NCBI RefSeq assembly: GCF_044324875.1
Contig: NZ_CP172185.1
Source of the DNA: Escherichia coli
GTDB taxonomy: Bacteria; Pseudomonadota; Gammaproteobacteria; Enterobacterales; Enterobacteriaceae
DNA length: 64,000 nucleotides
Direction: 5' to 3' (one strand)
How positions within the stretch are numbered: the stretch's first letter is position 1; every line of letters begins with the position of its first letter. Shown piece after piece: positions 13,618-41,301 of this stretch. The notes beneath the pieces are model-generated. The model was not told the DNA's origin. It made no database searches and saw nothing but the letters and a program-made list of their open reading frames with translations. Made by a program: the position numbers and the translations under genes.

Positions 13618-13620
13618 TAA

Positions 13621-13650
13621 GCAGTCCGGGCTGATTGCCCGGACTGCTTT
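13621..13650 (+). terminator. Hairpin after integrase gene
   Basis: GCAGTCCGGGC-tgatt-GCCCGGACTGC followed by TTT. Confidence 0.5.
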
Positions 13651-14068
13651 AACTGATTATTTTTCTTTGTAAATGATGACGAAGATTGATGTTCTGGCAA
13701 GTTACTCCGGCTTCCATTAAAGTCCCTTCGTCATGTTCTTCAGGCTATTTATGACTGTGATTAGCACCAGGAATATCTGGTTTCCATGAGAGCAGGTAAT
13801 AACCCCCGGTGTTTTCGGCTGTTCTGGTATCCTTGTCCAACGCAGGCAGTCATTATAAACGGTAAAAAATGTATTCACTGTTATGAAATCAATAGTCCTG
13901 ACGTACTGTTGAATGTGCTTGCGTTCTGAACCTTGTACAACCAGTACATTTGATACCGAATTATAAGCAAAACATTGCATCCAACTTTTTCAATATGGAC
14001 AATAGTTGTCCATATGGTGGTTTTATATTCGATAAATCAATGGATTTCATTGAGTCATAGGACTGGTA

Positions 14069-17000: not shown

Positions 17001-17584
17001 CATCGCCACGGGGATTACTGGCAAAATACCTCTTTGAGTCAGAGAAGAATGCGCTCTCTTTTGATTATAAAGAGCGTAAGGATTTAAAAACCGCCGGGAC
17101 CAAAATCTACACACTTCATGGTGTGGAGCAACATGATAATTTCCTGAATCAGACATTTGAAAATACCAGTAAACACATCACGATAGTTTCTCCATGGCTG
17201 ACCTGGCAAAGGCTGGAGCAAACCGGTTTTCTTGATTCCATGATTGCGGCGTGTTCACGTGGAATTAACGTCACGATAGTCACTGACAGAAGCTACAACA
17301 CTGAACATAATGATTTTGAGAAGCGAAAAGAGAAGCAGCAGAACTTTAAAGCGGCGCTGGAGAAACTGAATGCGCTGGGTATTGCTACAAAGCTGGTAAA
17401 CCGTGTTCATAGCAAAATTGTTATTGGTGATGATGGTTTGCTGTGCGTGGGATCGTTCAACTGGTTTAGTGCGACACGGGAAGCGCGATATGAACGATAC
17501 GATACATCAATGGTTTATTGCGGTGATAACCTGAAGGGTGAGATTGAGGCTATTTATAATAGTCTTGAGAGGCGGCAGGTTTAG
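14069..17584 (+). CDS. Large fusion protein: unknown N-terminal domain + Upf1-like SF1 helicase core + C-terminal PLD-family (single HKD) nuclease domain; candidate defence protein
   Basis: 1171 aa; Walker A GPPGTGKT (~aa 295), Walker B/motif [11 protein letters not shown] (~aa 695), motif V-like [11 protein letters not shown], motif VI-like VAVSRAKD, then HSKIVIGDD (HxK(x)4D) near aa 1114; first cargo gene after island integrase. Confidence 0.9.
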
Positions 17585-17692: not shown

Positions 17693-19192
17693 TTATCTTC
17701 TGCCCGGAAGAATCAGAGGCTGTGGTTTCAGACTGTCTGCCGGTACATTCCTGTCTCCGTTAAAAACAATAACGGGTTCATTATCTTCGTCTGTCAGCGG
17801 ATTGAATGGCGGTATATTTTCAGTACGAATGCCGGTCAGCCACTGAAAAATACCTGCGAAATGACGGGCACTGATTTTTCTGCTGACGGACTGATGAGAC
17901 GTGATGTCACTGGCGGTAATAATCAGGGGAACGCTGTAGCCTCCTTGTATATGGCCATCATGATGAACAGGATTAGCACTGTCGCTGACCGACAGACCAT
18001 GGTCAGAAAAGTAAAGCATGGCAAAATGACGGGAGTGCCGGCGAAGGATACCATCAAGCTGACCGAGAAAGTTATCCAGTTTACTGATGCTGGCGAGGTA
18101 ACAGGCAATCTTTCGGGGATACTGCTCCAGGTAATGATTCGGCCAGGAGTTAAGTCGGTCACACGGATTCGGATGAGAGCCAATCATGTGCAGGAATATC
18201 ACCTTCGGAGAGGATTTATCCGCCAGTGCACGTTCTGTTTCCTGTAACAACAACATGTCATCCGTTTTACGGGAAGCAAAGCTGCCTTTCTTGAGGAAAA
18301 CGGTATGCTCCGCATCAGAAGCAATAACAGAGATGCGTGTATCATGCTCCCCCAGTTTTCCCTGATTGGATATCCACCATGTGCTGTATCCTGCTTTTGC
18401 TGCCAGCGCCACCACGTTGTTGCCGGAGTCAGGGTTCTGCTCATAGTCATAAATCAGTGTCCGGCTCAGGGAAGGTACGGTACTGGCTGCTGCCGATGTA
18501 TAGCCGTCAATAAATAAACCGGGAGCCGTATTCAGCCATGGTGTGGTTGGCACGGGATAGCCATATACCGACATATAATCCCTGCGCACACTCTCACCAG
18601 TAACGATAACAATCGTGTCATACAACGGTGTTCCCGGCAGGATTTTCCAGTTGTCAGCCCCGTGCTGACTCAGTTGTTTATAACGCTGCATTTCACGCAA
18701 TGTGTCAGTTGTTCCCACAACAATTCCTTTAACCATCCGCAACGGCCAGCTGTTTACAGAGCATAATACGAACAGCAGCAGTGCCAGCCAGTTACGGTGA
18801 CCGCGGTGGTGTGTCCGCCAGAAAATCACCATGAATACCAGAATCGCGGCACTGACCAGAAAATGATAAACAGGAATCATCCCGGTAAACTCTGCAGCCT
18901 CATCAGCCGTGGTCTGCAGCAACGCGACAATAAAACTGTTGTTGATTTTACCGTACGTCATACCCGCAGGCGCATACAGTGCACAACAGAACAGAAATAA
19001 CAGCGTTGTAATGGATGTGAGGGTATTTCTGTGTGCAAGGAGCAGAAGGAGAAACAGAAGCAGCACATTTCCTGTGGCATTCTTCTCAGTGTATCCGCAT
19101 GCAATTGTGGTTATCACAGAAATAACAAAAAAGAATAAAAACAATAAAATCCGGGGTGTGTCGCCCGGACAAAACAGTTTTCTGATATTCAT
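17693..19192 (-). CDS. Sulfatase-family integral membrane enzyme (phosphoethanolamine-transferase-like)
   Basis: 499 aa; hydrophobic N-terminal TM region followed by soluble domain with HMIGSHPNPCDRL-type motif typical of alkaline-phosphatase/sulfatase superfamily transferases. Confidence 0.55.
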   Translation of the reverse strand: MNIRKLFCPGDTPRILLFLFFFVISVITTIACGYTEKNATGNVLLLFLLLLLAHRNTLTSITTLLFLFCCALYAPAGMTYGKINNSFIVALLQTTADEAAEFTGMIPVYHFLVSAAILVFMVIFWRTHHRGHRNWLALLLFVLCSVNSWPLRMVKGIVVGTTDTLREMQRYKQLSQHGADNWKILPGTPLYDTIVIVTGESVRRDYMSVYGYPVPTTPWLNTAPGLFIDGYTSAAASTVPSLSRTLIYDYEQNPDSGNNVVALAAKAGYSTWWISNQGKLGEHDTRISVIASDAEHTVFLKKGSFASRKTDDMLLLQETERALADKSSPKVIFLHMIGSHPNPCDRLNSWPNHYLEQYPRKIACYLASISKLDNFLGQLDGILRRHSRHFAMLYFSDHGLSVSDSANPVHHDGHIQGGYSVPLIITASDITSHQSVSRKISARHFAGIFQWLTGIRTENIPPFNPLTDEDNEPVIVFNGDRNVPADSLKPQPLILPGRR

Positions 19193-19373: not shown

Positions 19374-20114
19374 TCAGAAGTTATAAGTCACACCAAGCAT
19401 GATGTCATGACTTTTAACATCAACTTCTGACTTATATTTATCGCCCCACTCGTCCTTGTAACTCACACTGCTGTCACCTGCATCAAGATAGCGATAGCTG
19501 AGGTCCAGAGCGATATCCGGGGTTACGTCATAGCGGACACCCGCGCCAAGGTTCCATGCGAAGTTGTCAGCAGAGCCTGAACGTGACAACGATTCGCGAC
19601 CACTGCTTCCGTACTCATAATCCCAGGTACTGATACCGGTTGTTTTCTGGTGAATTCTGGCGTAGCCAATCCCTGCAGATATCCAAGGTGTGAATGCGCT
19701 GTCATTCCGGAAGTCATAGTACGCATTCAGCATTAGTGTGTTGACTGACACCTCATTCTTCAGGTCATCACGCCAGTAACCACCTGACCAACTGTCTTTA
19801 TCTACGTTATACTTCGAATCAGCTTTTCCACGAGCGTAAAACTCCAGTTCTGTACGAACCGGAATACTGAACTGCGGATAAAAATCATAACCAGCCGCGA
19901 TACCACCACTGAATACCGTATCATGGTCATCGCCGCCTTTATACTTTGACGTTTCTTCCTCATCTCCTGACAGGAAACGCTGGTCTGAAAGTGACACCAC
20001 AGAGGTACCGGCTTTACCGGTCAGATAAAAACCGCTTTTACCTTCCTCAGCACCTGCATTTGCTGCAAATACACAGGCTGCGGCCACCACTGAAACAGCA
20101 AAAACCTTTTTCAT
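19374..20114 (-). CDS. Outer-membrane beta-barrel protein (OmpA-like transmembrane barrel family)
   Basis: 246 aa; signal peptide MKKVFAVSVVAAACVFAANA; alternating aromatic/hydrophobic strands; C-terminal ...GVTYNF terminal Phe. Confidence 0.6.
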   Translation of the reverse strand: MKKVFAVSVVAAACVFAANAGAEEGKSGFYLTGKAGTSVVSLSDQRFLSGDEEETSKYKGGDDHDTVFSGGIAAGYDFYPQFSIPVRTELEFYARGKADSKYNVDKDSWSGGYWRDDLKNEVSVNTLMLNAYYDFRNDSAFTPWISAGIGYARIHQKTTGISTWDYEYGSSGRESLSRSGSADNFAWNLGAGVRYDVTPDIALDLSYRYLDAGDSSVSYKDEWGDKYKSEVDVKSHDIMLGVTYNF

Positions 20115-24104: not shown

Positions 24105-25310
24105 AAAAGAAATTTTAGCGCAGAGTTTAAACGCTAATCCGCCCAACTGGTTGTTGACCAGAACTATACGGTGGCAGATGCCGCCAAAGCTATGGATATC
24201 GGCCTTTCCACAATGACAAGATGGGTCAAACAACTGCGTGATGAGCGTCAGGGCAAAACACTAAAAGCCTCTCCGATGACACCAGAACAAATCGAAATAC
24301 GTGAGCTGAGGAAAAAGCTACAACGCATTGAAATGGAGAATGAAATATTAAAAAGGCTACTGCACTCTTGATGTCAGCCTCCCTGAACAGTTCTCTATAA
24401 TAGGGAAACTCAGGACACGTTATCCTTTGGTCACTCTCTGTGTAGTGGATCGGTAATTCAGGACACCTCATTTTCACTGTTAATGTTAAAAAGTGAAAAT
24501 GAGGTGATGCATGATCAAAACTCGTCGGACTAAACGTACCTTTTCCCCGGAGTTCAAGCTTGAAGCTATCGAACAGGTGGTTAAATACCAGCGTGATGTC
24601 AGAGAAGTCGCGCTGGCACTCGAGCTCAACCCTGACCATTTGCGTAAATAGATACGGTTGTATAAGCAGGAACTTCAGGGTATTGAGCCCGCTGGTAATG
24701 CTATTACTCCTGAACAACGCTAAATTAAGCAGCTTAAAGCGCAGATAAAGCGCCCTGAGATGGAAAAAGAAATACTAAAGCAGGCTGCCGTGCTGATGAG
24801 CGAAATCCCCGGGGAAACTGTCGCGCTAATCACACAGCTGAAAGCAAAGTGGCCAGTGCGGGTTCTTTGTCATTTATTCGGTATTCACCGTAGCATTTAT
24901 TACGCGCAGGTGAAGCGTCCTGTTAATGTGCAAAGAATTGAATTACGAAGTCGGGTGAGGGCTGTCCATGCTCTCAGTCGTGGCGCAGTCGGTAGCCGGG
25001 CAATCAGTCAGATGTTGCGCCATAGTGGCGTTGATGCAGGTCGGTGGCTGGCACGACGACTGATGCGGGAATGCGGGCTGACAAGTCGACAGCCAGTTAA
25101 ACATCACTACCGGGTAAACGAAGACAAAAGTCCGCCATTGCCAAATTTACTGAACCGGCAATTTCACCCCGCCGCACCAAACCGCGTCTGGTGCGGCAAC
25201 ATCAGTTTTATTCGCCTGCAGGACAAATGGTGTTATCTCGCACTCGTTGTTGATTTATATTCACGGCGGATTATCGGTTCAGCCCTCTCATTAACCGCTG
25301 ATGCTGAGTT
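24105..25310 (+). mobile_element. Nested IS3-family remnants: IS911-like orfA fragment followed by a second IS3-family orfA/orfB with in-frame stops, truncated by IS66 insertion
   Basis: [52 protein letters not shown] (orfA-like with stop); MIKTRRTKRTFSPEFKLEAIEQVV...; orfB part ends ...WCGNISFIRLQDKWCYLALVVDLYSRRIIGSAL at the IS66 boundary. Confidence 0.6.
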
Positions 25311-25347
25311 GTAAGCGTACAGCGAGGGCCGTATTGACGGGGATGTG

Positions 25348-26886
25348 TTATTCAGCTGGCAGTGCTATGCGCCACGGAAGCAGTTCGCTGACCCGGTTGA
25401 CCGGCCAGTCTGCTATGACGCCAAGCACATGGCGAAGGTAGCTTTCTGGATCCACGTCATTCAGTTTGCACGTCCCTATCAGGCTGTACAGTAGCGCTCC
25501 CCGCTCACCACCATGGCCAGAGCCGAAGAACAGGAAGTTTTTACGACCCAGACTTACCGCCCGCAGGGCATTTTCAGCGATGTTGTTGTCGATTTCCACC
25601 CAGCCATCGTTCGCATAGTACGTCAGTGCCGGCCACTGGTTAAGTGCGTACGCGAACGCCTTCGCCAACTCTGAGTGTCGCGACAGGGTCTTCATCTTTT
25701 CACGCAACCAGCTTTCCAGGGATTTCAACAGCGGTTTCGTTTTTCGCTGACGTTCAGCAAGCCGCTGCTCTGCCGGCATTCCCCTTATATCCGCCTCTAT
25801 GGCGTACAACTGACCGATCTGCTCCAGGGCTTCTTCCGTCAGTGCTGACGGGATGCGGACGTGCACATCGTGGATCTTTCGGCGGGCATGAGCCCAGCAG
25901 GCAGCTTCCGTTATCCCACCATTGCGATACAGCTCGTTGAACCCGGCGTACGCATCCGCTTGCAGCACACCGCTGAAGCAAGCAAGATGAGTCTGCGGAT
26001 GGATGCCTTTTCTGTCCGGGCTGTAAGCGAACCACACTGCAGGTGCCAACGCTGACCCGGCATTGCGGTCATCACGAACATACGCCCACAACCGCCCGGT
26101 CTTCGTCTTCTTATTACCCGGCATCAGTACCTGGACCGGGGTATCATCGGCATGGAGTTTGCCGTCAGTCATGACATAGCCATGAAGCGCCTCTTCCAGC
26201 GGAGACAGCAGCCGGCAGCATGCATCCACCCAGCCCGACAGCAGTGAACGGCTCAGCTCCACACCTTGCCGGCCGTATATTTCTGACTGGCGATACAGCG
26301 GGGTGTGCTCTGCATACTTCGAGGTCAGCACGCGGGCCAGCAGCCCCGGTCCGGCGATACCCCGCTCGATGGGCCGCGAAGGTGCAGGTGCCTGCACGAT
26401 GGCATCGCACTGAGTACAGGCATGTTTTTCCCGTACCGTCCGGATAACCCGGAAGGCGCTACGCATCAACTCCAGCTGTTCGGCGGTATCCTCGCCCAGA
26501 TAGCTCAGTGAACCGCCGCAGTTCGGGCAGCACGGCGCCGCAGGCAACAGTCGCTTTTCGTCACGGGGTAGTGATTCAGGGAACGGCTTACGGATGCGGG
26601 TCTGACGCAACGGACGCTGTACTGCCGGGTCATACACCCTACCAGTCAGCGTATCGCTCTCTTTCTGAAGCCGGTTCAGATCGGCTTCCATTTGTGCGAT
26701 ACGGCGGGAGACTTTTTCGGAACGACTGCCGAAGTTCATCCGGCGGAGTTTATCCAGCTGCGCCTGCAGATGGTCTATTTCGCGCTCCCGGTTGCTCAGC
26801 TTTTCCTGCAGGGCGTGGATCAGCGCTTCCTGTTCGGCCAGGCGCTGTTTCAGCAGGAAGATGTCGTCAGAAGAGATGTCGTTCAT
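25348..26886 (-). CDS. tnpC: IS66-family transposase TnpC
   Basis: 512 aa; leucine-zipper-like N-terminus, CxxC zinc-finger-like motifs, DDE core. Confidence 0.85.
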
Positions 26887-26935
26887 AAGCCCGTATTTTA
26901 CCGGGCTTATTCTGTGACAACCAGGATAAAGAGAT

Positions 26936-27283
26936 TTACAGCATGGTCAGGGAGGTCAGCAGCCGCTTAGGCTGTCGCCAGTCGATACCTTCCAGCAGCA
27001 TCGCCAGCTGCGCCTGTGTAAGGAACACTTTGCCATCACGGGCTGACGGCCAGGCGAAGCGCCCACGCTCCAGCCGTTTGGTCAGGAGGCACAGTCCGTC
27101 ACCGGTGGACCACAGCAGTTTAACCTGACTGCCGCTGCGGCCCCGGAAAATGAAAACATGGCCGGACATGGGATCGTCTTTCAGCGCCGTCTGTACTTTC
27201 GCAGCCAGGCCGTTGAAGCCATTTCTCATATCGGTGATACCGGCAACCAGCCAAATTTTGGTCCCGGAAGGTAAAGGGATCAT
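26936..27283 (-). CDS. tnpB: IS66 Orf2 (TnpB)
   Basis: 115 aa; [31 protein letters not shown] typical IS66 Orf2. Confidence 0.85.
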
Positions 27284-27681
27284 CGCTTCAGTTCCTGTAT
27301 CAGCAGAGTCAGGAGCTTTTCGCTGACATTGCCATTGAAGCGGAGCGTCCCGTGCCGGAACGTTACCTCACAGCTGATACTGAGGGTTTCCGGGTCCTCT
27401 GCGAGCGATTCTGGCTGTTCGGCAGCTGCATCGAGAGTCACAGGAAGTAGCTGGGGGCTCTCTGAAGAAGGTAATAGCAGCTTTCCCTCGCGCCATTGTT
27501 GTCGCCATTTGAACAACAGATTGGCGTTAATGCCATTTTCAAGAGCAAGTTTTGAGATGGATATCCCGGGTTCACAGGAGGCAGCAACGAGCTGCTGTTT
27601 AAATTCGGGAGGATAATTAGGGCAGCCTTTTCGCCTGCCGGGAGTCACATTTTTCTGCATATCTGACACTTTGGTTCCCAC
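27280..27681 (-). CDS. tnpA: IS66 Orf1 (TnpA)
   Basis: 133 aa; overlaps tnpB start by 4 bp. Confidence 0.8.
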   Translation of the reverse strand: MGTKVSDMQKNVTPGRRKGCPNYPPEFKQQLVAASCEPGISISKLALENGINANLLFKWRQQWREGKLLLPSSESPQLLPVTLDAAAEQPESLAEDPETLSISCEVTFRHGTLRFNGNVSEKLLTLLIQELKR

Positions 27682-27748
27682 TACTTATTTGGTGGACACC
27701 ACTTTGTCTAATTCGTCAGATTCTGACCAGACGGTTCAGGCTGTACGC

Positions 27749-29833
27749 TTACGCCTGACCGGTGTCTCTGGTGACATATTCCGGAGCTCCGGAGAGAGTA
27801 AAGGTAACGCGATCATCGGCAGAAGCATCTCCATACTGCAGATGCCCGTCGTTGGGGATCATGGCCAGTTTGCCGTAATAGCGATACACATTGTATTCAT
27901 CCTGTGTATAGCCAAAGAAGGACTGATTATTCAGTTGTGAACCCGACAGGCTGACAAACTCGCTGGCAAGAAGATGACTTCCCGTATTATCCAGTTTGTT
28001 CGCGTCAATCAGCAGATTATTACCGGCCGAAATTCTGGCATCCCCCCCTGTTGCACCAACATCGACGCGTGTTGTGCCAGTCAGAAATTTCCGGGTGGCT
28101 CCCTTTTCAGTCGGAACGGCCCATGCCTCAAAACCACCACCGGCAGTACCGCTCCAGGACTTCACATAATATCCCCATCCATTTTCACCTAAATCGCCCA
28201 CTCTGACTGAAACAGAATTTACACCATCAGGTACTGCGACATTCTCAACCGGAATGTATGATTTTGTCTCATTTATACCCTCCCGCTGATTCAGTAAATG
28301 TCCGGTTCTGATGGTGATATCACCGCGGGTGGTTTCGATATTCCCGGAGGTATTAATCACTTCAGCATTCGCGGCACCACTGACATCTTTCTGCATCACC
28401 AGGCTGTAACCCGCCAGCATATCGCCGTGATGGTTCCGGATGGTGCTGGCAAACAGCGAGAGGTTATTGCCCGCATACAACAGTGCGGTGTTAATGACTG
28501 CCCCGGCGACCGTTAACACCAGACTACCCGTCGTGCCGGTAAAACCGTCGAGAGTGATATCTCCCCTGCTGGTCAGGCTGACGTCCCCGCCTGCCTGCAG
28601 GCTGCCGCTGGCATTCATCGCAATCCCGCTGCCGCTCAGTGCCGTGGTGCCGTTGCCGGCGGTCAACTGGCCATTGTTGGTCAGCCTGCCTGCAGCATTC
28701 AGCGTGATACCGTTGCCCTGCAATGTGGCGCCATTGGTAATATCACCCTGGCTGCTGACGGAGAGTTGTTTATTCGCGGCGATAACGCCCTGTGCGGTCA
28801 AACCACGTGTGAGCTTCAGCGTCAGGTTACCGAGTGCAACCAGCTGGCCCGCGCCGCTGAGCGAGACCATTTCAGCAAGCATATCACCGCCGCTGAACAC
28901 CTTCCCGCCGGCGTTGTTCAGGCTGTTCCCTTTTATTGTCAGGCCCTGATTACCCAGCAGCGTGCCGCTGTTGGTGATGGTCTGCGTGTTGACGTTCAGT
29001 TGTGCAGCCTGGAACAGGCCACGGTTGGTCAGACTGTTACCTGTGAGCGTTGCCTGATTCGCCGCCATCACAGTGCCATTACCGGCAAGCTTCGCCACGT
29101 TCAGCAGCAGGTCAGTGGCCTGTAGCCAGCCACTGCCACTGTAGTCCGGCGTGGTGAACGTCAGCTCACCGCCGGAAAGAATCTTGCCACTGTTGTGGGC
29201 CTGCGTTGCCGCGCTGAGCGTGGTTTTACCGTTGCCCTGAATGGTGCCGTCATTAGTCAGCACAGGTGCAGAAAGCGCTGATACGTTCTGACTGAGAAGC
29301 ACACCGCTGGTCTGGTTGGTCAGGGCATTCAGCAATGTAAGAGTCAGCCCGCTGTCGCCCTGCACACGACCTGAGTTGGTCAGCGAACTGGCGGTGATTC
29401 GGTTATCCGCCCCCTGAAGCTGCCCACTATTGCTGATGTCTCTGGCGTTGACGTTTAATGTACCGCCTGTCAGCATTTTACCGTGCTGTTGCAGATTACC
29501 ACTGAGTGTCACATTCAGGCTGTTAACACCACTGATTTCGCCACCGTTGCTGAGCGAATCACCATTCACTTCCAGCGTCTTCGCGCTGATTAATCCCTTG
29601 TTACCCAGCACTTTCCCGGTAAGGCGGGCATCGCCCAGGGCGGTAATTTTGCTGCCGGTGGCAGCAATAACATCGCCACTCAGGGTCAGAGCCAACTCCA
29701 GCGCACTCTGAACAGCACCGCTGCTGGTCAGGCTGCTGGCATCCAGAGTAATGTTCTGCCCCTGAATCCGGCCGCTGTTGGTCACATCTCCTGCGCTCAG
29801 CGTCAGCGAGTTCTGGCTCGATCCGCGCACCAC
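27749..29833 (-). pseudogene. Fragment of a large filamentous-haemagglutinin/CdiA-like repeat protein (two-partner-secretion exoprotein), truncated at both ends
   Basis: 694 aa of degenerate ~20-aa repeats rich in TLSG/LTNSG/IQGNG/NAL motifs; no signal peptide or TPS domain; 3' end abuts IS66 copy 1; 5' end abuts the GC-rich block. Confidence 0.6.
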
Positions 29834-29872
29834 TTATCCCGAACTGCGTCAGCAGTTGATCGGAGGTACACC

Positions 29873-30424
29873 ATGAAACGCATTCTGACCCGTGGCCTGG
29901 CGCTGCTGATGCTGATGCTCGCCGGCTGCAGCATCGAGGTCACCGAGTACCGGCAGCAGCAGCCCGCCCTCGACATCTTCCACTATTTTCAGGGTCGAAC
30001 CGAGGCGTGGGGGATGGTGCAGGATCGCCGCGGTAAACAGCTGCGCCGCTTCCATGTAGCGATCGATGGCGACGTCGTCGGCGACACCCTGACGCTCCAT
30101 GAGCGCTTTGTCTATGACGATGGCGAGAAACAGCAGCGGGTGTGGCGCATTCGCCGCACCGGCGATAACCATTATCAGGGCACCGCCGGGGATATCGAAG
30201 GCGTGGCCAGCGGCCAGGCGGCAGGCAATGCCTTTCACTGGCGCTACAGCATGAACGTCGAGGCCAGCGGCAGCCGGTGGCTGCTGCACTTTGACGACTG
30301 GATGTTCCTGCAGGACGGCAGCCATTTGTTTAACAAAACCGAGATGAAGAAATTCGGCATTACGGTGGCCACCGTGACCCTTTTCTTTACCCGAACCACA
30401 GCAGAAGAGAGGACAGCGCCATGA
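29873..30424 (+). CDS. Lipoprotein (DUF3833-like)
   Basis: 183 aa; lipobox MKRILTRGLALLMLMLAGCS; overlaps next gene start by 4 bp. Confidence 0.55.
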   Translation: MKRILTRGLALLMLMLAGCSIEVTEYRQQQPALDIFHYFQGRTEAWGMVQDRRGKQLRRFHVAIDGDVVGDTLTLHERFVYDDGEKQQRVWRIRRTGDNHYQGTAGDIEGVASGQAAGNAFHWRYSMNVEASGSRWLLHFDDWMFLQDGSHLFNKTEMKKFGITVATVTLFFTRTTAEERTAP

Positions 30425-31380
30425 ACACGCAACCTGTCATTGGGATCAGCGGATGTTTAACCGGCTCAGCCGTGCGATTCGACGGCGGGCATAAGCGTAT
30501 GGGCTTTGTGATGGATGAGCTCGCGCAGTGGGTGGCGTTTAAGCCCGTCTGCCCGGAGATGGCGATCGGCCTGCCCGTTCCCCGCCCGGCGCTCCGGCTG
30601 GTGCAGACCCCGGTCGGGGAGATCCGCATGCGCTTCAGCCACGCCCCGCACGAGGATGTGACGGAGAAGATGGCCGATTTCGCCAACGCCCATCTGGCAA
30701 CCCTGGGCGAGCTGTCGGGCTTTATCGTCTGCGCCAAATCGCCGATCTGCGGGATGGAGCGCGTGCGGCTGTATGATGAAAAAGGCAATCGCGGGCGTAA
30801 GGAAGGCGTGGGGCTGTTTACCGGCGCCCTGATGGCGCGCTACCCGTGGCTTCCGGTGGAAGAGGATGGCCGGCTGCACGATCCGCTGCTGCGGGAGAAT
30901 TTTGTCGAGCGCGTCTTCGCCCTGCATGAACTCAACGCCCTGCGCGCCCGCGGCCTGACCCGCCACGGCCTGCTGGCCTTTCACAGCCGCTACAAGCTGC
31001 AGCTGCTGGCTCACCACCAGGCGGGCTACCGCGAGATCGGCCCCTTCGTCGCCTCGCTGCATGAATGGGAGGATCTGGAGGCTTTCTTCGAGGTCTATCG
31101 CGAAAAGCTGATGGCGATCCTCAAGCGGCCCGCCTCTCGGAAAAACCACACCAACGTGCTGATGCATATTCAGGGTTATTTCCGCGACCAGCTGAACAGC
31201 CGCCAGCGCGGCGAGCTGCGGGAGGTGATCCTCAACTATCGCGCCGGGCTGCTGCCGATCCTCGCGCCGCTGACGCTGCTTAAGCACTATCTGGCCGAGT
31301 ATCCGGATCGCTACCTGCAGGCGCAGAACTATTTTGACCCCTACCCGCAGGATCTTGCCCTGCGCCTGACGGTGAACTGA
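30421..31380 (+). CDS. YbgA-like protein (DUF523/DUF1722 architecture)
   Basis: 319 aa; N-terminus VIGISGCLTGSAVRFDGGHK typical of DUF523. Confidence 0.55.
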   Translation: MNTQPVIGISGCLTGSAVRFDGGHKRMGFVMDELAQWVAFKPVCPEMAIGLPVPRPALRLVQTPVGEIRMRFSHAPHEDVTEKMADFANAHLATLGELSGFIVCAKSPICGMERVRLYDEKGNRGRKEGVGLFTGALMARYPWLPVEEDGRLHDPLLRENFVERVFALHELNALRARGLTRHGLLAFHSRYKLQLLAHHQAGYREIGPFVASLHEWEDLEAFFEVYREKLMAILKRPASRKNHTNVLMHIQGYFRDQLNSRQRGELREVILNYRAGLLPILAPLTLLKHYLAEYPDRYLQAQNYFDPYPQDLALRLTVN

Positions 31381-31385
31381 GGGAA

Positions 31386-31620
31386 CCTGGGCCAGCTGCC
31401 CGGCGGCGCTGCGCTTGCGCGGGCCTGGGAGGGGATCCCGCAGGCCTCCTCAGGAACGTAGGCCGGATAAGGCATTTATGCCGCCATCCGGCACAACCAC
31501 AGGTATGGAGCTTGAAGTGTCCTGCCCGGCGGCGCTGCGCCTGCCGGGCCTGGGGGGTATCCCGCAGGCCTCCTCAGAAACGTAGGCCGGATAAGGCATG
31601 TATGCCGCCATCCGGCATAA
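31386..31620. repeat. Tandem duplication (~120-bp unit) each carrying a REP-type palindromic element
   Basis: Two copies of CCTGCCCGGCGGCGCTGCGC...GGGATCCCGCAGGCCTCCTCAG(G/A)AACGTAGGCCGGATAAGGCAT(T/G)TATGCCGCCATCCGGCA. Confidence 0.7.
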
Positions 31621-31692
31621 ATGGAGCGCACCAGTCGTAGCCCGGCTAAGCGTAGCGCCAGCCGGGAACGCTCCTTCGACAACGCTATCGCA

Positions 31693-33075
31693 TCAGAACC
31701 ACGCCTCAAACATCCCGCCGACGTTCAGCGAATCCAGCTGCTGGTCTTTGGTGCCGTTGACCTTAGCGGTATGCTCGTTGTCCACCTGACCGCCGGTCAC
31801 GTAGAAGCGCAGCATCGGACGGAACTCCGGCCCCATGCCGATGGCGATGTTCTGCGACAGCGTCAGCTTCCAGCCGTGGTTATCCCCGCCCTGGTCGTAG
31901 TCCACGCGCTGGTAGCCCGCTTCCAGCCAGGTGGAGTGCACGTCGTTCCAGAAGTACATCGGCCGCACGATGGCACCGTAGTTTTTGCGGTTGTCGGTAT
32001 TATCTTTGCCGTTGTCGTAGTCGTGGAAGGCCAGCAGATATTCCACCTGCGCCTGCTGGGTGAACTTATGGCTGCCCTCGAAGCTAGCGTAGACCGTGGT
32101 CAGGTCGTCGGTTTTGTTGTAGACGCTGTTATCCGAGTTATCGGAGTAGCGCAGGATCACCTTGTTCACCCCTCTGTCGTTGGTGTGGCTCAGCACCAGG
32201 CCGCCCTGCCAGGCTTCGAGACGCGCGTCGCTGTCCACCGCCTTCGAGTCAAAGCCGTAGTTGGCGTACACCTCGACGTCGATCGGCCCGGCCTTGATGT
32301 TGTGGGTTTTGGTGGTCAGCGCGTAGTGGCCGTTGTCCCCGGTGTCGGAGCTGCCGGTACAGGTGATACGCGACGGGTTGGTCTCGTCGGCCATCACTTC
32401 CGGGCTACAGGATTTCACCTGCGACACCGCCGCCACGTCGAACTGCACGCCGCCGATATCAAAGTTCTTCACCCCGGCGCCCTGGCCGTCGTGGTTCATC
32501 CAGAAGTAGTCGTTGATCCCCTGTTGCGGACGCTGGTGGAAGTCGCGGCCGGCCCAGATATAGGCGTTGGGATTGGATTCCAGCACGTTGGTGACGCCGA
32601 CGTAGGCCTTCTTCAGGTTAACCTCGTCGCTCCAGTGGTCGAACATGACGTTGAGATCCCAGATAGCCCCCTGCGCGCTTTTGAAGGCTTTGCTGATCTG
32701 GAATTCGCCGCCGTTGCTTTCGTTGCCCAGACGGCCGATCGCCGAGGCGCCGTTATAGGAGCCGTCGACGCCGACATATTTCTGGTCGCCGGTCTGGAAA
32801 TGGGCGCCATAGCGGGCATAGCCGCTGAACTTGAGGCCGAACGGAATGGCCATATCCGGCGAGGCGGCGGTGGTCTGTGGGTTGGTAATGACGTCGACCT
32901 TTTTGTCGGCCGCGGCGTCAATTTTCGCCTGGCGGTCGGCCAGCGCTTTATCAACGGCTTTGGCGACGATGGCGTCGATCTGTTCCTGAGTAAATTCTTG
33001 CGCCATTACAGAGGTAAGCGGAAAAAACGCGGCGATAACCGCCATGGTTAATGGAAGTTTTTTTATCATTGTCAT
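31693..33075 (-). CDS. LamB-family sugar porin with N-terminal coiled-coil extension (ScrY-like)
   Basis: 460 aa; signal peptide then AQEFTQEQIDAIVAKAVDKALADRQAKIDAAADKK extension; C-terminal ...GGMFEAWF. Confidence 0.65.
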   Translation of the reverse strand: MTMIKKLPLTMAVIAAFFPLTSVMAQEFTQEQIDAIVAKAVDKALADRQAKIDAAADKKVDVITNPQTTAASPDMAIPFGLKFSGYARYGAHFQTGDQKYVGVDGSYNGASAIGRLGNESNGGEFQISKAFKSAQGAIWDLNVMFDHWSDEVNLKKAYVGVTNVLESNPNAYIWAGRDFHQRPQQGINDYFWMNHDGQGAGVKNFDIGGVQFDVAAVSQVKSCSPEVMADETNPSRITCTGSSDTGDNGHYALTTKTHNIKAGPIDVEVYANYGFDSKAVDSDARLEAWQGGLVLSHTNDRGVNKVILRYSDNSDNSVYNKTDDLTTVYASFEGSHKFTQQAQVEYLLAFHDYDNGKDNTDNRKNYGAIVRPMYFWNDVHSTWLEAGYQRVDYDQGGDNHGWKLTLSQNIAIGMGPEFRPMLRFYVTGGQVDNEHTAKVNGTKDQQLDSLNVGGMFEAWF

Positions 33076-33405
33076 GAGTTTCTCAATATAGGTTAATTTT
33101 ATTCAGACAATAACCAGCCTATTCTGAGCTGACAGAATATGTCGCTATCATCAGAACAAGTTATTTTTTATTTTGTACGGTCACAGAGGCATTACACAAT
33201 TATCGCTACTCGCCCTCCCTCACTGATATTAAAAAGGTGGCACAATGGCAGAACCATCCGCGCGGCGGATTGTTCCTCTATAGACAGTCAAACAGATAGC
33301 CTTTCGGCACAGACAGCATAAATACAACACGAACAAATAAACGCTATTTCCCGGCAGCGGGCACACGGCGGAATACATGCCCCCGCAGGGGCATGTCAGC
33401 CAAAT

Positions 33406-34725
<1,320 letters not shown>

Positions 34726-35136
34726 GATGAACTCCGAAATTGAGGAAGCCGAAAATTAACAACTGTGACACATCGTGTATTCTCATCGTCGGTTGCTCAA
34801 TTACGTTATTTCACTCAGCGATTGAGAAAATGCTCAAATGTGAGCCATCTCGCAAATAAAACTATTTTAAATATCTCGCTTCGCGCGCGTATAGAGTACA
34901 CTTCCTGGGGAATTCAGGTGGGCATAGCGAATTAAAATGCCGGTTTTGTCACATTGCCTGTCTGCCAAAAAATTAGCGGCGGATGGCGGCTCAACGCAAG
35001 TGATACAGGCCTTTGCTTCGAGGATCACAGAAGTAAAAAAACATAATTACTTAATTTAAAAACGTAATAGATTCTTCCATGTCAACTGTGTCAGAAAGTG
35101 TTTCACCTACACAAAACAAACCGGAGTCTGCTTAGA

Positions 35137-36591
35137 ATGAGTAAAAACATAATGCACAGTCGGCATGATGAATATCATAAATTAACCCGTGGAGAACGAA
35201 TTGGTTATGGCATGGGCGACTTTGCGCAAAACCTGGTTTTCGGCACAATTGGGGGTTTTCTGGCTTTGCATATGCTGACGGTAAATACCATCAGCACGGC
35301 AACGGCAGGCTTTATTTTTCTTTTTGTCCGCATAATTAACGTGTTTTGGGATCCGATGGTCGGCACCTACGTGGATAAACGAACCTCGAAGGCAGGGAAA
35401 TATCGTCCGTGGCTGTTACGAGCCGGCGTGCCGCTGGTGATCCTCTCGGCATTACTGTTCGCGCCCATCCCCGGAGTGAAAGGTTCGGTGGCTTTCGCCT
35501 TTATTATTTATCTGGCGCTGGACCTGGTTTATTCCTTAGTCAATATTCCCTATGGCTCGCTGAATGCGTCGCTGACCCGCGACCCGGAATCGATCGATAA
35601 ACTGACCAGTACCCGCATGATGCTGGCCAACAGCGCCAACCTGCTGGTCTATACCCTGTTCCCGATGTTTGTGCAGATGGCGGCGCCGAAAGATCGCAGC
35701 CTGAAAGACACCGGCTTTTTTGGCCTTGAGCTGAATATGGGGAATTATGCCGATCCGTCGGCAAATTACGCCTGGTTTGGCGTGTACGCCATCTATATGA
35801 TCATCGGCGCGGTGGCTCTGTTTATCTGTTATAAATTCACCAAAGAACGCGTTGTCGCGACCGCCGAGCAGACCGCCAACGTCAAAACCACCGACCTTTT
35901 CCACGAGCTCCGACATAACCGCCCGCTGGTTATTCTGGGCATGTTCTTTATGCTGGCCTTTACCTTCATGTTCTTCATGAACACTGTTAACGGCTTCTTC
36001 AACCAGTACGTCGTCGGCCACTCCGAATGGATGGGCGCGGTGGGTCTCGTCGCGTCTATTCCCGGCATCGCCTTCCCGATTTTCTGGCCGAAACTGAAAA
36101 AAATCTTTGGTAAAAAAGGCTTCTTCCATCTGTTCCTCGCCATGTTTATCGTCGGCGAACTGCTGACCTACGTCTGGTCCCGCGAAGGGATGCACGACGC
36201 CCTGTGGCTGGCCTACATCGCCACCTTTATTAAACAGTGGGGCTTAACCTCCGCCACCGGCTTTATGTGGGCGCTGGTACCGGAAGTCATCGCGTACGGC
36301 GAATTAAAATCTGGCAAACGCAATGCCGCCATTATCAATGCCATTATGGGACTCTTCTTCAAGATCGGCTTCACCATCGGCGGCGCGATCCCGCTGTGGC
36401 TGCTGGCGGTGTATGGCTTTAATGAAAGCGGCGCCGTGCAGAGCGCCAGCGCCATCGACGGGATCATTATGACCGCGGTGTGGATCCCGATCGCGCTGGC
36501 CGCTATTTCGATGGTGATTATCCAGGTTTATCCGATCTCCGATAAACATGTTACCGACATCAACCGTCAGCTGGATGAGATCCGCGTGTAG
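35137..36591 (+). CDS. GPH-family glycoside/xyloside:cation symporter (XynT/YagG-like)
   Basis: ORF 35098..36591; start taken at MSKNIMHSR...; 12-TM-type protein with GPH N-terminal motif GYGMGDFAQNLVF. Confidence 0.7.
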   Translation: MSKNIMHSRHDEYHKLTRGERIGYGMGDFAQNLVFGTIGGFLALHMLTVNTISTATAGFIFLFVRIINVFWDPMVGTYVDKRTSKAGKYRPWLLRAGVPLVILSALLFAPIPGVKGSVAFAFIIYLALDLVYSLVNIPYGSLNASLTRDPESIDKLTSTRMMLANSANLLVYTLFPMFVQMAAPKDRSLKDTGFFGLELNMGNYADPSANYAWFGVYAIYMIIGAVALFICYKFTKERVVATAEQTANVKTTDLFHELRHNRPLVILGMFFMLAFTFMFFMNTVNGFFNQYVVGHSEWMGAVGLVASIPGIAFPIFWPKLKKIFGKKGFFHLFLAMFIVGELLTYVWSREGMHDALWLAYIATFIKQWGLTSATGFMWALVPEVIAYGELKSGKRNAAIINAIMGLFFKIGFTIGGAIPLWLLAVYGFNESGAVQSASAIDGIIMTAVWIPIALAAISMVIIQVYPISDKHVTDINRQLDEIRV

Positions 36592-36649
36592 TTAAAAAAA
36601 TTATAAATCAGACCGATTCGTCACTTTCCATTTTAAAAGGTGTAATGAA

Positions 36650-38329
36650 ATGTCACTTATTCAAAACCCGATATTACGCGGCTTTAATGCCGACCCCAGT
36701 ATTATTCGCGTCGAGGATACGTACTATATTGCCAACTCGACGTTTGAGTGGTTTCCGGGCGTGCGTTTACATGAGTCGAAAGACCTGAAAAACTGGAACC
36801 TGCTGCCTTCGCCGCTCTCCACCACCACCCTGCTGGACATGAAGGGCAACCCCTCCTCCGGCGGCATTTGGGCGCCGGCGCTCTCCTGGGCCGACGGGCA
36901 ATTCTGGTTGGTGTATACCGATGTGAAGGTCACCGAAGGCGCCTTCAAAGACATGACCAACTACCTGACCACCGCGAAGGATATTCGGGGCCCGTGGAGC
37001 GACCCGATCAAGCTGAACGGAGTCGGGTTTGACGCCTCGCTGTTCCATGACGACGATGGCCGGAAATATATCGTCCAGCAAACCTGGGATCACCGGGAGT
37101 ACCATCACCCCTTCGATGGCATTACCTTAACGGAGCTGGATACCAACACGCTGAAGTTAATGCCGGAAACCGCGCGCACCATCTACCGCGGCACCGCCGT
37201 AGCGCTGGTCGAGGGGCCGCACCTCTATAAACTGAACGGCTACTACTACCTGTTTGCCGCCCAGGGCGGCACCGTGTTTACCCACCAGGAGGTGGTGGCG
37301 CGGTCGAAAACCCTCGAGGCCGACAGCTTTGAAACCGAGCCGGGCGACGTGTTCTTAACCAACGTCGACACCCCGGACAGCTACATCCAGAAACAGGGCC
37401 ATGGCGCGCTGGTCTCCACCCCGGAAGGCGAATGGTATTACGCCTCGCTCTGCGCCCGGCCGTGGAATCGCCCGGGGGAATCCATCTACGACCCGCGCGG
37501 CTGGTCAACCCTCGGCCGGGAAACCGCGATCCAGAAAGTGTACTGGGATGACGAGGGCTGGCCGCGTATTGAAGGCGGTCACGGCGGGAAAACCTTCGTC
37601 GAAGGACCGAAAGACGCCATCTTCACCGAAAGCGCCAGCGATAATAGCCAGCAGGATGACTTTACGTCGCCAGCCCTCGACCCGAACTGGAATACCCTGC
37701 GGGTGCCGTTTACGGCCAAAATGGGCACCACCGGTAACGGCAAATTAACCTTAATCGGCCAGGGCTCGTTAGCCAATACGCATGATCTGTCGCTGATTGC
37801 CCGCCGCTGGCAGGCCTTCTATTTTGACGCCGCGGTGAAGGTGAAATTCGAGCCCTTCAGCTACCAGCAGATGGCCGGGTTAACGAATTACTATAACGAC
37901 CGCCACTGGAGCTTCGTCTTCCTGACCTGGAATGAAATTAACGGCAAGGTCATCGAAGTCGGCGAAAATAACCGCGGGAAATACACGTCGTACCTGAAAG
38001 ATAACGCCATCAAGGTGCCGGACGGCGTGGAATACGTCTGGTTCCGGACCAAAGTCCGCAAGCAGACCTACAGCTATGAATACAGCTTCGATGGCGTGAC
38101 GTTCACCGAGATCCCGGTCCAGCTGGATGCCGCGGTGCTGTCCGATGACTATGTGTTGCAGAGCTACGGCGGGTTCTTTACCGGGGCGTTCGTCGGCCTG
38201 GCGGCGGTAGACTACGCCGGGTACGGCACCCAGGCTGAGTTTTATCAGTTCGAGTATCAGGAGCTGGGCGATAGCTTAGCGGCCGATGGCAGCTACAGCT
38301 GGGAGGCTGGCGAGACGCGGGATAAGTAA
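36650..38329 (+). CDS. Glycoside hydrolase family 43 beta-xylosidase (XynB/YagH-like)
   Basis: 559 aa; MSLIQNPILRGFNADPSIIRVEDTYYIANSTFEWFPGV typical GH43 N-terminus. Confidence 0.8.
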   Translation: MSLIQNPILRGFNADPSIIRVEDTYYIANSTFEWFPGVRLHESKDLKNWNLLPSPLSTTTLLDMKGNPSSGGIWAPALSWADGQFWLVYTDVKVTEGAFKDMTNYLTTAKDIRGPWSDPIKLNGVGFDASLFHDDDGRKYIVQQTWDHREYHHPFDGITLTELDTNTLKLMPETARTIYRGTAVALVEGPHLYKLNGYYYLFAAQGGTVFTHQEVVARSKTLEADSFETEPGDVFLTNVDTPDSYIQKQGHGALVSTPEGEWYYASLCARPWNRPGESIYDPRGWSTLGRETAIQKVYWDDEGWPRIEGGHGGKTFVEGPKDAIFTESASDNSQQDDFTSPALDPNWNTLRVPFTAKMGTTGNGKLTLIGQGSLANTHDLSLIARRWQAFYFDAAVKVKFEPFSYQQMAGLTNYYNDRHWSFVFLTWNEINGKVIEVGENNRGKYTSYLKDNAIKVPDGVEYVWFRTKVRKQTYSYEYSFDGVTFTEIPVQLDAAVLSDDYVLQSYGGFFTGAFVGLAAVDYAGYGTQAEFYQFEYQELGDSLAADGSYSWEAGETRDK

Positions 38330-38411
38330 AAGAGAGTGGGCCCACGCTACCGGTAAGGTAGCGTGGGGTTTGTGGTGTGTTTGATGTAATTAAAGCGAGC
38401 GCTGTCGGATG

Positions 38412-39050
38412 TCAGTCTGTGGGGCGCAGCCGGGCCTTCAGCTCTTCGGGGGTAAACGGCGGATCTCGCCGGTGCAGCATCGCATGGCAGTTGGGACATA
38501 CCGGGATCAGATCGGTTTCAGGGTTCAGGCGGTAGTCCTGCTTTATCCCGGCCAGCGGGATGAGATGGTGGATATGGATAAAGCCCTGGCCGATATCGCC
38601 ATAGCGGCTGGCCATATCCAGACCGCATACCTGACACTGGCAGCCATGCAGGCGAAGCGCCGCCTGACGAGCCTGACGGTCGCGCTCATAGCGATTGACC
38701 ACCACCTGCAACGCCGCCCCTTCCACGTACTCCATGGTCGTCTGCCCCTCATCGGGGAAAAGCGCAACCTCGTCATCGCCAGCGCCCTGCGACGCGATCG
38801 TAAATCCTTGCTCCAGTAACAGACGCACGCATTTTGATTTAATCCCCCCGCTGAAATCCGCCGGGGTAAATTCCGTTCCCGTCGCAAGCGTGGCCGCTAA
38901 CCCGACGATGGCTTTTGAAGGATACCGACGCCCCTCAAACTCGATCTCATACAGACGCGCGCTTTTAAACTGATGCGCAACGCCTGCATCGTAAGCGCGA
39001 ATGGCGGCGATGATGCATTCCCTGGATAAATGGTCCGGTAGTTTTTTCAT
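38412..39050 (-). CDS. HNH-family endonuclease with unassigned ~110-aa N-terminal domain
   Basis: 212 aa; C-terminal CQVCG...HIHHLIPLA...NPETDLIPVCPNCHAMLHRR HNH/zinc-finger core. Confidence 0.7.
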   Translation of the reverse strand: MKKLPDHLSRECIIAAIRAYDAGVAHQFKSARLYEIEFEGRRYPSKAIVGLAATLATGTEFTPADFSGGIKSKCVRLLLEQGFTIASQGAGDDEVALFPDEGQTTMEYVEGAALQVVVNRYERDRQARQAALRLHGCQCQVCGLDMASRYGDIGQGFIHIHHLIPLAGIKQDYRLNPETDLIPVCPNCHAMLHRRDPPFTPEELKARLRPTD

Positions 39051-39229
39051 AAGACATAGCTATCTGATGGCGCGAAGCTTGAGTATAAATAGAAAGCTAT
39101 GGTCTTTTCGAACAAATAACTGGCAGTGATAATTAAATCGCGATCCACGTAGAATCGCCGCATCTGGTAGGTTGATCGGCAAGGATTTTGCGAGCATCAT
39201 CGCATTTATTTAGCTGCCAATGTAACGCT

Positions 39230-40099
39230 ATGCCCTCCAGCACGACCCTGCAACACGCGATCGAGAACATCACCATCTGGCGCAAAGGCGAACAGCGTGC
39301 GCCGCATAAACCACTATTGCTGCTGTACGTCCTCTCGCAATACCAGCGCGGCCATGCGCGGATGTTCGACTACGCCTCGGAGATACGTGATGAGCTGCAT
39401 AGCCTGCTGGAACGCTTTGGCCCGCAGCGCCGCCAGTACCGGCCGGACATGCCCTTCTGGCGCCTGAAAGGCGACGGCTTCTGGGAGCTACACAACAGCG
39501 AACAGTGCTCAACCCAGGGCAGCCGACAGCCGCCCGGCAAAGAGCTGGAGCTCTGCCACGTCGCCGGCGGCTTTGATGAGCAGCATTTTGCGTTACTTAA
39601 CAGAAATAAGAAGCTGATCAATACCCTCGCCCATCAGATCCTCGAGGCGCACTTTCCGGAGAGTATTCAGGAAGAACTGGCTGAAGAGATGGGGTTTGAT
39701 CTGCTGCAGATCCGCAAAGAGCGCGACCCGCATTTTCGCCAGCAGGTGCTGCGCGCCTATAACTATGAGTGCGCTATCTGCGGCTTCAATATGCGCCATG
39801 ATAATACCTCCGTCGCCCTGGAAGCGGCCCATATCAAGTGGAAGCAGCACGGCGGCCCCTGCGAAATCCCTAACGGCCTGGCGCTCTGCGCGATTCACCA
39901 TAAGGCTTTTGATAAAGGATCCATTGGTCTGGATGAGGATATGCGCATCCAGGTTTCGCCGGCGGTGAACGGCGGAGGCATCGTTGGCAGGTTGTTCTGG
40001 GATTTTGATGGTAAGCCGATTACCTTGCCGATGGGGAAAGAATGCTATCCCCAGGAGGGGTTTGTGGCGTGGCACCGGCGGGAGGTGTTCAGGGGATGA
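39230..40099 (+). CDS. HNH-family endonuclease with unassigned ~190-aa N-terminal domain (candidate modification-dependent restriction enzyme)
   Basis: ORF 39188..40099; YNYECAICGF...AAHIKWKQHGGP...NGLALCAIHHKAFDKG HNH core; divergent from the neighbouring HNH gene. Confidence 0.7.
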   Translation: MPSSTTLQHAIENITIWRKGEQRAPHKPLLLLYVLSQYQRGHARMFDYASEIRDELHSLLERFGPQRRQYRPDMPFWRLKGDGFWELHNSEQCSTQGSRQPPGKELELCHVAGGFDEQHFALLNRNKKLINTLAHQILEAHFPESIQEELAEEMGFDLLQIRKERDPHFRQQVLRAYNYECAICGFNMRHDNTSVALEAAHIKWKQHGGPCEIPNGLALCAIHHKAFDKGSIGLDEDMRIQVSPAVNGGGIVGRLFWDFDGKPITLPMGKECYPQEGFVAWHRREVFRG

Positions 40100-41301
40100 G
40101 GGGGATGGTGATAAGCGGGTTTCGATGTTGAGCGTAGGGTTTAGGGATTGGGACTGTGTTTCGGAGAGGATTTCGTGGTTGATCAATGATTGGTCGTGGC
40201 TAGGTTAAAGGACTTATTTATTGATTGTTTTGATATTGATGCGAAGGCCTGACTCAAACATGCGATTTAACCTCATGATTTAAAATTGTTAATAATAAAC
40301 AACACCATCCTATACCAACACAGATACCAACACGAAAAATCACTGGTTTTCGGCATCGAACCAGGACAATCAGGTCCTGATTGAGATACCGAGCTCTGTT
40401 ACTCGTCATCTGCCTCGACAGGCTCCATTGCATCAAGTGGTACTCGCACCATCGCGATAGATCCAATCCGGATAAAAGCATCTTCCCCATCTATATCGGT
40501 TAACTGATATCGCTCACTTGATGCCGGATAATTGTGTCGATTGGCAACAGTGTACTCTTTCGTACAGCCAGAATGTGGCAGACTGAGGTGGAATAGATAA
40601 CGTCCGTATGCCCGCTGACCACCTCCGGGCGGGAGAGTGTGGTATCTGACATCATCATTTTTCCTTTTGGTTTATAAACGAAAACGCCAGCCGTATTCAG
40701 GCTGGCGTCAGGGTAATGAAGCGTGGTGAGTGATATTCACCGGTTCTGGTGCAGAAGCTGCAGATGACGCAGGGTACGGACATCCTCTCTGGCCTGTTCG
40801 ATACAGGGCAACAGTGCTGCCGATGTCAGTAGGCTATTTCCGGTTGATATACCCTGCCCGTAAATTACAGGGCAGGAATAGTATTATTAATTTCGGGAGA
40901 AGCTTAAGGTTGCCACATCGACAGTTTCATCACACAGGTTTTTGTCCTGAAATACTTTCTTATTTTTGACTTTAGCTAGCCATTGCCCGACATGAAGGGA
41001 GGGTACAGTGATGATACCGTCCTCATTACTTACAAAGGTAAGTTCTGCTTTATGAGCCGAATGTTTATGCTCTGCCGCATGAGTATGGCGGGATGATTTC
41101 AGATAACTGACAGAGTCAAGCTCCAGAGTGGCTCCGGCAAGCGGGGAAGTTTTATACAGAACTTTCAGCTTCACATCTTCACCGAAACGACTGATATCGG
41201 ATAACGGAATTAGACTGGCCCCCTGAATCTCCAGACAACCAGTATCACTTAAATAAGTGATAGTCTTAATACTAGTTTTTAGACTAGTCATTGGAGAACA
41301 G

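Follow-up and report, generated by a model that had tools for sequence, protein, structure and literature searches.

The window (the whole 64-kb stretch of E. coli DNA analysed here) contains a 694-codon open reading frame (ORF) on the minus strand, which lies between an ISEc8 element and a GC-rich, Klebsiella-like segment (Table 1). The translation of this ORF is rich in the G/N/S/T/L β-helix pattern that is typical of TpsA proteins. By our own estimate, the chance of finding 694 sense codons in a row is approximately 3e-15, from (61/64)^694. This length, which is far beyond chance, and the in-frame homology to cdiA described below indicate that the ORF is real, with the homology being decisive. 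The filamentous haemagglutinin (FHA) repeats are visible only in the protein, and Tandem Repeats Finder detected no DNA-level tandem repeats within positions 27000-32000. A sequence search of the PDB with the ORF returned no match.

Table 1. Positions in the window of the cdiA-derived ORF, its parts, its two junctions and the adjoining elements.
Feature	Position	Strand	Details
ISEc8 (IS66 family), 2442 bp	25311..27752	minus	terminal repeats; Pfam families PF03050/PF13817/PF13007/PF13005, PF05717 and PF01527; PGAP name "ISEc8 family transposase"
ISEc8 tnpC	25348-26886	minus	ISEc8 gene
ISEc8 tnpB	26936-27283	minus	ISEc8 gene
ISEc8 tnpA	27280-27681	minus	ISEc8 gene
TAA stop of the ORF	27749..27751	minus	within the ISEc8 terminal inverted repeat (G-TAA-GCG)
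694-codon ORF (plus stop)	27749..29833	minus	GTG start; cdiA remnant preceded by 15 nt of foreign antisense and closed by an IS-supplied stop
Class III (Tsx-specific) receptor-binding region, N-terminal ~211 residues (~70%)	27752..28384	minus	PMC5371414 Fig S1 peptides
cdiA-derived DNA, 689 codons	27753..29819	minus	residues 877-1565 of the 3236-aa WP_001680718.1
FHA-1 β-helical repeats, ~478 residues (CdiA ~877-1354)	28385..29818	minus	PF05594, TIGR01731
5' junction, 8-bp microhomology TCTGGCTC common to cdiA and the foreign gene	29812..29819		three-way alignment
Klebsiella-like GC-rich block (GC ~0.6)	29812-40823		DUF3833 gene, YbgA-like gene, carbohydrate porin, xylA, MFS transporter, GH43 gene
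Truncated foreign gene, last ~21 codons (..DPRTTYPELRQQLIGGTP*)	29814..29876	plus	normally precedes the DUF3833 gene, overlapping its start
DUF3833 lipoprotein gene	29873..30424	plus	PF12915, E=1.6e-64; first intact gene of the Klebsiella-like segment

The identity of the ORF is apparent from comparison with the intact 3236-aa CdiA WP_001680718.1 of strain SCU-102, wherein the locus order is cdiB-cdiA-cdiI. Residues 6-694 of the ORF align in frame with CdiA residues 877-1565, with identities of 98.2% at the nucleotide level (blastn) and 97.8% at the amino acid level (blastp/tblastn). Across 5426 complete E. coli genomes, region 27753-29834 finds matches at 97-98% nucleotide identity in 111. 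Besides five genomes that carry the same truncated fragment, nearly all of the sampled matches, which are located on both chromosomes and plasmids, are annotated as "cdiA: contact-dependent inhibition toxin CdiA".

The domain content of the ORF was probed using profile searches. PF05594 (Fil_haemagg) is the sole Pfam match, covering two stretches with E=1.6e-11, and the NCBIfam model TIGR01731, a 20-aa filamentous-haemagglutinin repeat, is also matched (E=1.8e-4, above its cutoff). In intact WP_001680718.1, Pfam places a TPS domain (residues 36-288), FHA-1, FHA-2 (e.g. residues 2377-2550), PT-VENN (residues 2893-2942) and an Endonuclea_NS_2 toxin domain (residues 3097-3221). The Pfam scan of the ORF contains none of the TPS (PF05860), FHA-2 (PF13332), PT-VENN (PF04829) or toxin domains. 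When full CdiA was compared with the 64-kb window by tblastn, FHA-2, PT-VENN and the toxin were missing throughout, and the part of CdiA before residue 877 gave only repeat cross-matches. Likewise, tblastn found no cdiB, cdiI or other cdiA sequence in the window, with the SCU-102 allele serving as the only query for cdiI, which is toxin-specific. The FHA-1 part of the ORF is ~30% self-similar to other FHA-1 stretches of full-length CdiA.

The remainder of the ORF belongs to the receptor-binding region, which in E. coli CdiA has been mapped between FHA-1 and FHA-2 (Ruhe et al. 2017; PMC5371414). In class I, the limits of this region are about Ser1347/Arg1358 and Tyr1636/Phe1646; in class II, they are Ala1345 and Trp1668. 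The classes are distinguished by receptor: BamA for class I, OmpC/OmpF for class II and Tsx for class III (PMC5371414). The boundary between FHA-1 and the receptor-binding region was set at the conserved QKD motif (ORF residues 481-483), which served as the chimera junction in Ruhe 2017 (PMC5371414). Two peptides in the C-terminal part of the ORF, INETKSY and YRYYGK, are found in a single row of PMC5371414 Fig S1, that of STECO31 (class III), and Table S3 of the same paper includes WP_001680718.1 among the class III CdiAs. The fragment ends with ...TRDTGQA at approximately residue 1565; the class-specific region reaches approximately residue 1655, so the last ~90 residues are gone.

These results bear on an earlier note on this DNA, which had described the ORF, with its strand unstated, as an internal fragment of a CdiA-like exoprotein made up of 694 codons of FHA-type repeats and lacking a TPS domain, a C-terminal toxin and an immunity region. 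The ORF itself is confirmed and assigned to the minus strand, and the match to CdiA residues 877-1565 establishes that it is an internal CdiA piece. The absence of the TPS domain, toxin and immunity gene is borne out by the Pfam scan of the ORF and the tblastn searches of the window. The description as FHA-type repeats holds for ~478 residues, or about two-thirds of the ORF, and fails for the last ~211, which are receptor-binding region.

The doubly truncated fragment has a narrow distribution. Positions 27000-31000 of the window were recovered whole by megablast, at 99.8-99.9% identity, in only 5 of the 5426 complete E. coli genomes (A65EC, ES1, ST38, GF43 and I2), and in PLSDB the fragment is absent, as only intact cdiA genes match and neither junction is spanned. 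In all five carriers, RefSeq/PGAP annotates a pseudogene missing its N- and C-termini under the name "beta strand repeat-containing protein". This vague label, and the fact that PF05594 repeats are common to all TpsA proteins, could accommodate an origin in a different family, such as an autotransporter, a ShlA/HpmA haemolysin or a HecA-type adhesin. Such an origin is already refuted by the 98% in-frame identity to annotated cdiA genes of more than 100 genomes, which includes class III-specific receptor-binding sequence. An artefact of assembly or composition is countered by the occurrence of the identical double junctions in five independently assembled complete genomes. Taken together, we consider a different family or an artefact to have a negligible probability.

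The 3' end of the cdiA homology is formed by ISEc8, which cuts cdiA at codon 1565. This element carries the terminal repeats GTAAGCGTACAGC at both ends, with the inverted copy at 25311; IS66 terminal repeats begin GTAAGCG. Along the minus strand, the cdiA homology ends with ...GGTCAGGC and is followed by GTAAGCGTACAGCC... in the window versus TCTGAGAGCC in intact cdiA. The 8-bp target-site duplication is absent, as the 8-mers beside ISEc8, GCTGAGTT and GCCTGACC, are unlike each other. This difference indicates that ISEc8 sits at a rearrangement joint and does not represent a simple insertion. Beyond the other end of ISEc8 come an IS3-family remnant and then a PhoX gene. A 37-bp part of this remnant (25274-25310), which adjoins the ISEc8 end, is present in the window and deleted in the five complete carrier genomes. 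The indel is indicative of the adjacent deletion that is typical of IS activity, and it suggests that the window holds the older form of the joint between the IS3 remnant and ISEc8. The reciprocal junction, in which the right end of ISEc8 would be joined to GGTCAGGC and distal cdiA, would mark an ancestral simple insertion or an inversion partner; it was found in 0 of 20,395 records.

ZYB39 (NZ_CP098234.1) and UTME-7 were considered as genomes that might share the IS66-cdiA junction. These candidates, with 71% query cover, were rejected, as in their annotation IS66 flanks a longer cdiA pseudogene on its 5' side, which is a different and independent arrangement. The ZYB39 locus (738-16156 of record L003) is an independent decayed class III cdi locus, wherein an 8.2-kb frameshifted cdiA without its 5' end is abutted by IS66 tnpA/tnpB, and a separate VENN-pretoxin fragment and cdiI are located beyond ISCro1. 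Based on this locus, IS66-family insertions in cdiA seem to be recurrent.

The 5' end of the cdiA homology has a different origin. Alignment of the window, intact cdiA and relatives of the foreign segment (records L007/L010) demonstrates that the cdiA homology extends to 29819 while the foreign homology starts at 29812. The resulting 8-bp overlap of the two homologies is the signature of a microhomology-mediated (illegitimate-recombination) deletion. E. coli LH50-c and the metagenome-assembled genome (MAG) contig L007 have a complete copy (174 aa) of the foreign gene at this junction, and the remnant in the window is called by PGAP as a pseudogene without its N-terminus. Codons 1-5 of the ORF and its GTG start (29819-29833; VVRGS) are the antisense strand of this unrelated truncated gene and are not cdiA. 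Consequently, the GTG start codon is accidental, since the antisense strand of the foreign gene remnant supplies both it and the first five codons.

The DUF3833 gene that follows is divergent from the cdiA remnant, and the nearest relatives of its protein are found on the MAG contig (97% amino acid identity) and in the Klebsiella oxytoca complex (86-87%). For the segment as a whole, the nearest sequences are the same metagenome contig (95.7% nucleotide identity) and the Klebsiella oxytoca complex (~85%), and LH50-c has the same Klebsiella-like segment at 99.7% identity but is devoid of the cdiA fragment. The MAG contig is labelled "uncultured Clostridiales" and is probably a mis-binned enterobacterial contig. 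Variants of the Klebsiella-like block are also carried, beside IS5/ISKpn26, by E. coli plasmids of ~300 kb from wastewater. Within the block, two units of ~120 bp that bear REP-like palindromes (GCCGGATAAGGC...GCCGCCATCCGGC) lie in the intergenic region after the YbgA-like gene (31398-31617); these units match a four-unit array in the MAG contig and were unreported by Tandem Repeats Finder. Further along, a divergent pair of genes encodes an HNH endonuclease (38412-39050, minus strand) and a "phosphorothioated DNA-binding restriction endonuclease" (39230-40099, plus strand). Both genes match PADLOC HNH or type IV modification-dependent restriction-enzyme models, and the pair is a probable modification-dependent restriction module.

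The structure of both ends is relevant to whether the ORF might be expressed from the GTG at 29833 to give a truncated protein that has taken on a new role, such as a cytoplasmic or surface β-helix or a Tsx-binding polypeptide. The ORF is long and intact, the GTG start has a weak GGGA three nt upstream, and a promoter-like site is located upstream on the correct strand at 30198-30171. However, promoter-like sites occur in the region at chance frequency (2 found versus 1.6 expected), and the start codon, together with the first five codons, stems fortuitously from antisense DNA. By eye, the N-terminus, VVRGSSQNSLTLSAGDV, is unlike a signal peptide, a TPS domain and CdiB are lacking, the receptor-binding region is incomplete, and PGAP calls a pseudogene in five of five genomes. 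An expressed product with a new role is therefore regarded as extremely improbable.

The substitution pattern was examined by comparison with the intact SCU-102 cdiA, which yields a pN/pS of 0.27 based on 19 synonymous and 15 non-synonymous differences. Among the 15 amino acid variants private to the fragment are T6, E41, Y471 and N546 (numbered along the fragment). Taken alone, this value and the intact 689-codon frame could hint at constraint and count against the pseudogene reading. The ratio is mostly attributable to allelic divergence between functional genes that predates the truncation and does not reflect present constraint. The copy in the window is 1-3 nt apart, in 2200, from the copies in ES1, A65EC and GF43; differences of no more than 3 nt over 2.2 kb indicate that the truncation is recent, which accounts for the frame still being open.

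The surroundings of the fragment are those of a tRNA-associated island. A tRNA-Phe gene is located at 12082-12157, after groL...aspA...dsbD, and is followed by an integrase and a long mosaic island. The fragment is part of a ~23-kb module (17701-40823) that runs from an EptA-like transferase through PhoX, IS3 remnants, ISEc8, the cdiA fragment and the Klebsiella-like xyloside genes to the PT-DNA restriction enzyme. This module occupies the pheU (tRNA-Phe) island in the window and the selC (tRNA-Sec) island in A65EC and GF43, and ES1 and ST38 have the same integrase as these selC-island carriers. The presence of the same module in pheU and selC islands points to module exchange between related islands. 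In E. coli, cdi loci are known from the mosaic islands of leuX, pheV, selC and aspV, which transposition keeps reshaping (PMC4927057).

After the pheU-island integrase (12355-13617), a gene on the plus strand (14069-17584) encodes a 1171-aa AAA domain-containing protein that matches the PADLOC model MkoC end to end with 1694 bits, and it looks like a Mokosh-type anti-phage defence gene. At 17693-19192 and 19374-20114, both on the minus strand, an island-borne EptA-like phosphoethanolamine transferase gene lies beside an outer-membrane protein gene; the EptA-like gene might bear on the modification of lipid A or on polymyxin tolerance.

The carrier chromosomes, standing in for the genome from which the window derives, were also probed for a partner locus using chimeric queries, in which 1.56 kb of carrier-specific sequence was joined either to 1.19 kb of cdiB or to 1.3 kb of cdiA from just past the breakpoint, which includes the conserved YP region. 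The query containing cdiB matched 777 genomes, and among the matches listed, most were matched by the cdiB part alone. On each carrier chromosome this query was found at one place only, corresponding to the carrier-specific part, and the query containing distal cdiA again matched a single place per carrier. Consequently, the five carrier chromosomes are without cdiB and distal cdiA at the sensitivity of megablast.

These results are pertinent to the suggestion in the earlier note that such orphan fragments can act as recombination templates. Like the orphan cdiA-CT/cdiI or rhs-CT modules, the fragment might serve as a silent template that recombines with a full-length cdiA, either resident or incoming, and alters its FHA-1 or receptor-binding sequence. 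Orphan modules are displaced cdiA-CT/cdiI 3' ends that are located downstream of, and co-oriented with, cdiBAI (Poole et al. 2011, as summarised in PMC4927057), and their retention has been ascribed to immunity or to fusion with the upstream gene via shared homology (PMC4927057). Recombination of such cdiA-homologous modules with the upstream gene has been proposed, and it has been demonstrated for Rhs (PMC4927057). Furthermore, receptor-binding domains are modular and have apparently been exchanged between effectors (PMC5371414), and the ~1.4 kb of FHA-1 in the fragment could act as one homology arm. However, the fragment contains no CT or cdiI cargo, and it has no 3' homology arm for swaps into class I or II genes, since its end falls within the class-specific receptor-binding region. 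To a class III gene it could pass on no more than a few SNPs. The fragment is not downstream of any cdiBAI cluster, the window contains neither cdiB nor further cdiA sequence, and the five carrier chromosomes lack cdiB and distal cdiA. A role as silent template is thus very unlikely, and the suggestion is not supported for lack of toxin/immunity cargo, a 3' homology arm and a resident partner on the five carrier chromosomes. The term orphan, in its CDI sense, does not apply to a fragment without VENN, CT and cdiI. In analogy to toxin orphans, the fragment might be kept as a "receptor-domain orphan", a donor that, through recombination of the single-arm or gene-conversion type, could direct an incoming cdiA towards Tsx, although we consider this exceedingly improbable.

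Instead, the ORF is best regarded as a pseudogene without function, left over from a class III cdiA that targeted Tsx and that belonged to a former cdiBAI locus on a tRNA-associated island before two rearrangements cut it; the probability of this reading is roughly 0.94. As established for two-partner secretion and CDI (see also PMC5371414), export of CdiA requires a signal peptide, a TPS domain and the cognate CdiB, delivery requires the complete receptor-binding region, FHA-2, PT-VENN and toxin, and self-protection requires CdiI. The remnant cannot be exported, as it lacks a start codon of its own, a signal peptide, a TPS domain and a partner CdiB. An inert pseudogene is the best-supported reading because the parts for export, delivery and self-protection are all missing. 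Shorter CdiA truncations are known to be poorly exported and rapidly degraded (PMC5371414). The proposal of the earlier note that the ORF may be a relic of a contact-dependent inhibition (CDI) locus was correct, as it is an internal class III CdiA piece, without TPS, toxin or immunity, on a tRNA-associated island of the cdi-bearing type.

The two junctions suggest a history for this pseudogene. ISEc8 is proposed to have entered the receptor-binding-region coding sequence of cdiA after codon 1565. Later, an IS-mediated deletion or recombination between ISEc8 copies would have put the unrelated flank containing the IS3 remnant and PhoX in place of cdiI and of the distal 5 kb of cdiA; we infer that this loss followed the ISEc8 insertion because the target-site duplication is missing. 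A separate deletion fused codon 877 to the 3' end of the gene in the Klebsiella-like segment via the 8 bp of microhomology. This 5' deletion took cdiB along with the TPS and early FHA-1 part of cdiA, and the junction itself is directly observed. The remnant would then be a fossil of the loss of a CDI locus, with nothing left for it to do.

The fragment carries little biological weight, as it is an ordinary decayed gene in an IS-rich mosaic E. coli island. It illustrates that CDI loci can vanish entirely, immunity gene included; the title of one paper (PMC4927057) puts forward stable maintenance of CDI systems by cell-contact surveillance. The two junctions of the fragment constitute a precise lineage marker. 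Additionally, the RefSeq name "beta strand repeat-containing protein" could give way to the more precise "cdiA (class III) pseudogene fragment". Disruption of cdiA by IS elements is commonplace, and the fragment is a known kind of feature that is already a RefSeq pseudogene.

Among the closest known systems, the class III CdiA effectors of E. coli (CdiA-STECO31, WP_001385946.1; WP_001680718.1 of SCU-102, HVH 98 and others) bind the nucleoside channel Tsx. The fragment shares with them its FHA-1 and class III receptor-binding sequence as well as a location on a tRNA-associated genomic island; in contrast to these effectors, only 21% of the protein is left, and TPS, YP/FHA-2, PT-VENN, toxin, cdiB and cdiI are missing. 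Effector activity is therefore impossible for the fragment. The FhaB and HecA-type TpsA adhesins have the PF05594 β-helical repeat in common with the fragment, whereas the fragment is near-identical to cdiA itself. Similar to the orphan cdiA-CT/cdiI modules, it is a cdiA fragment beside transposase genes on a cdi-type island and a "fossil" of past rearrangements. Unlike those modules, which consist of a VENN-CT and an immunity gene, it is a mid-gene piece with no toxin, immunity gene or nearby cdiBAI. Finally, ZYB39 and UTME-7 also possess an IS66-family element abutting a truncated class III cdiA, but in these genomes only the 5' ~1.5 kb is lost, the distal gene and orphan VENN/cdiI modules are kept, and the breakpoints are independent.
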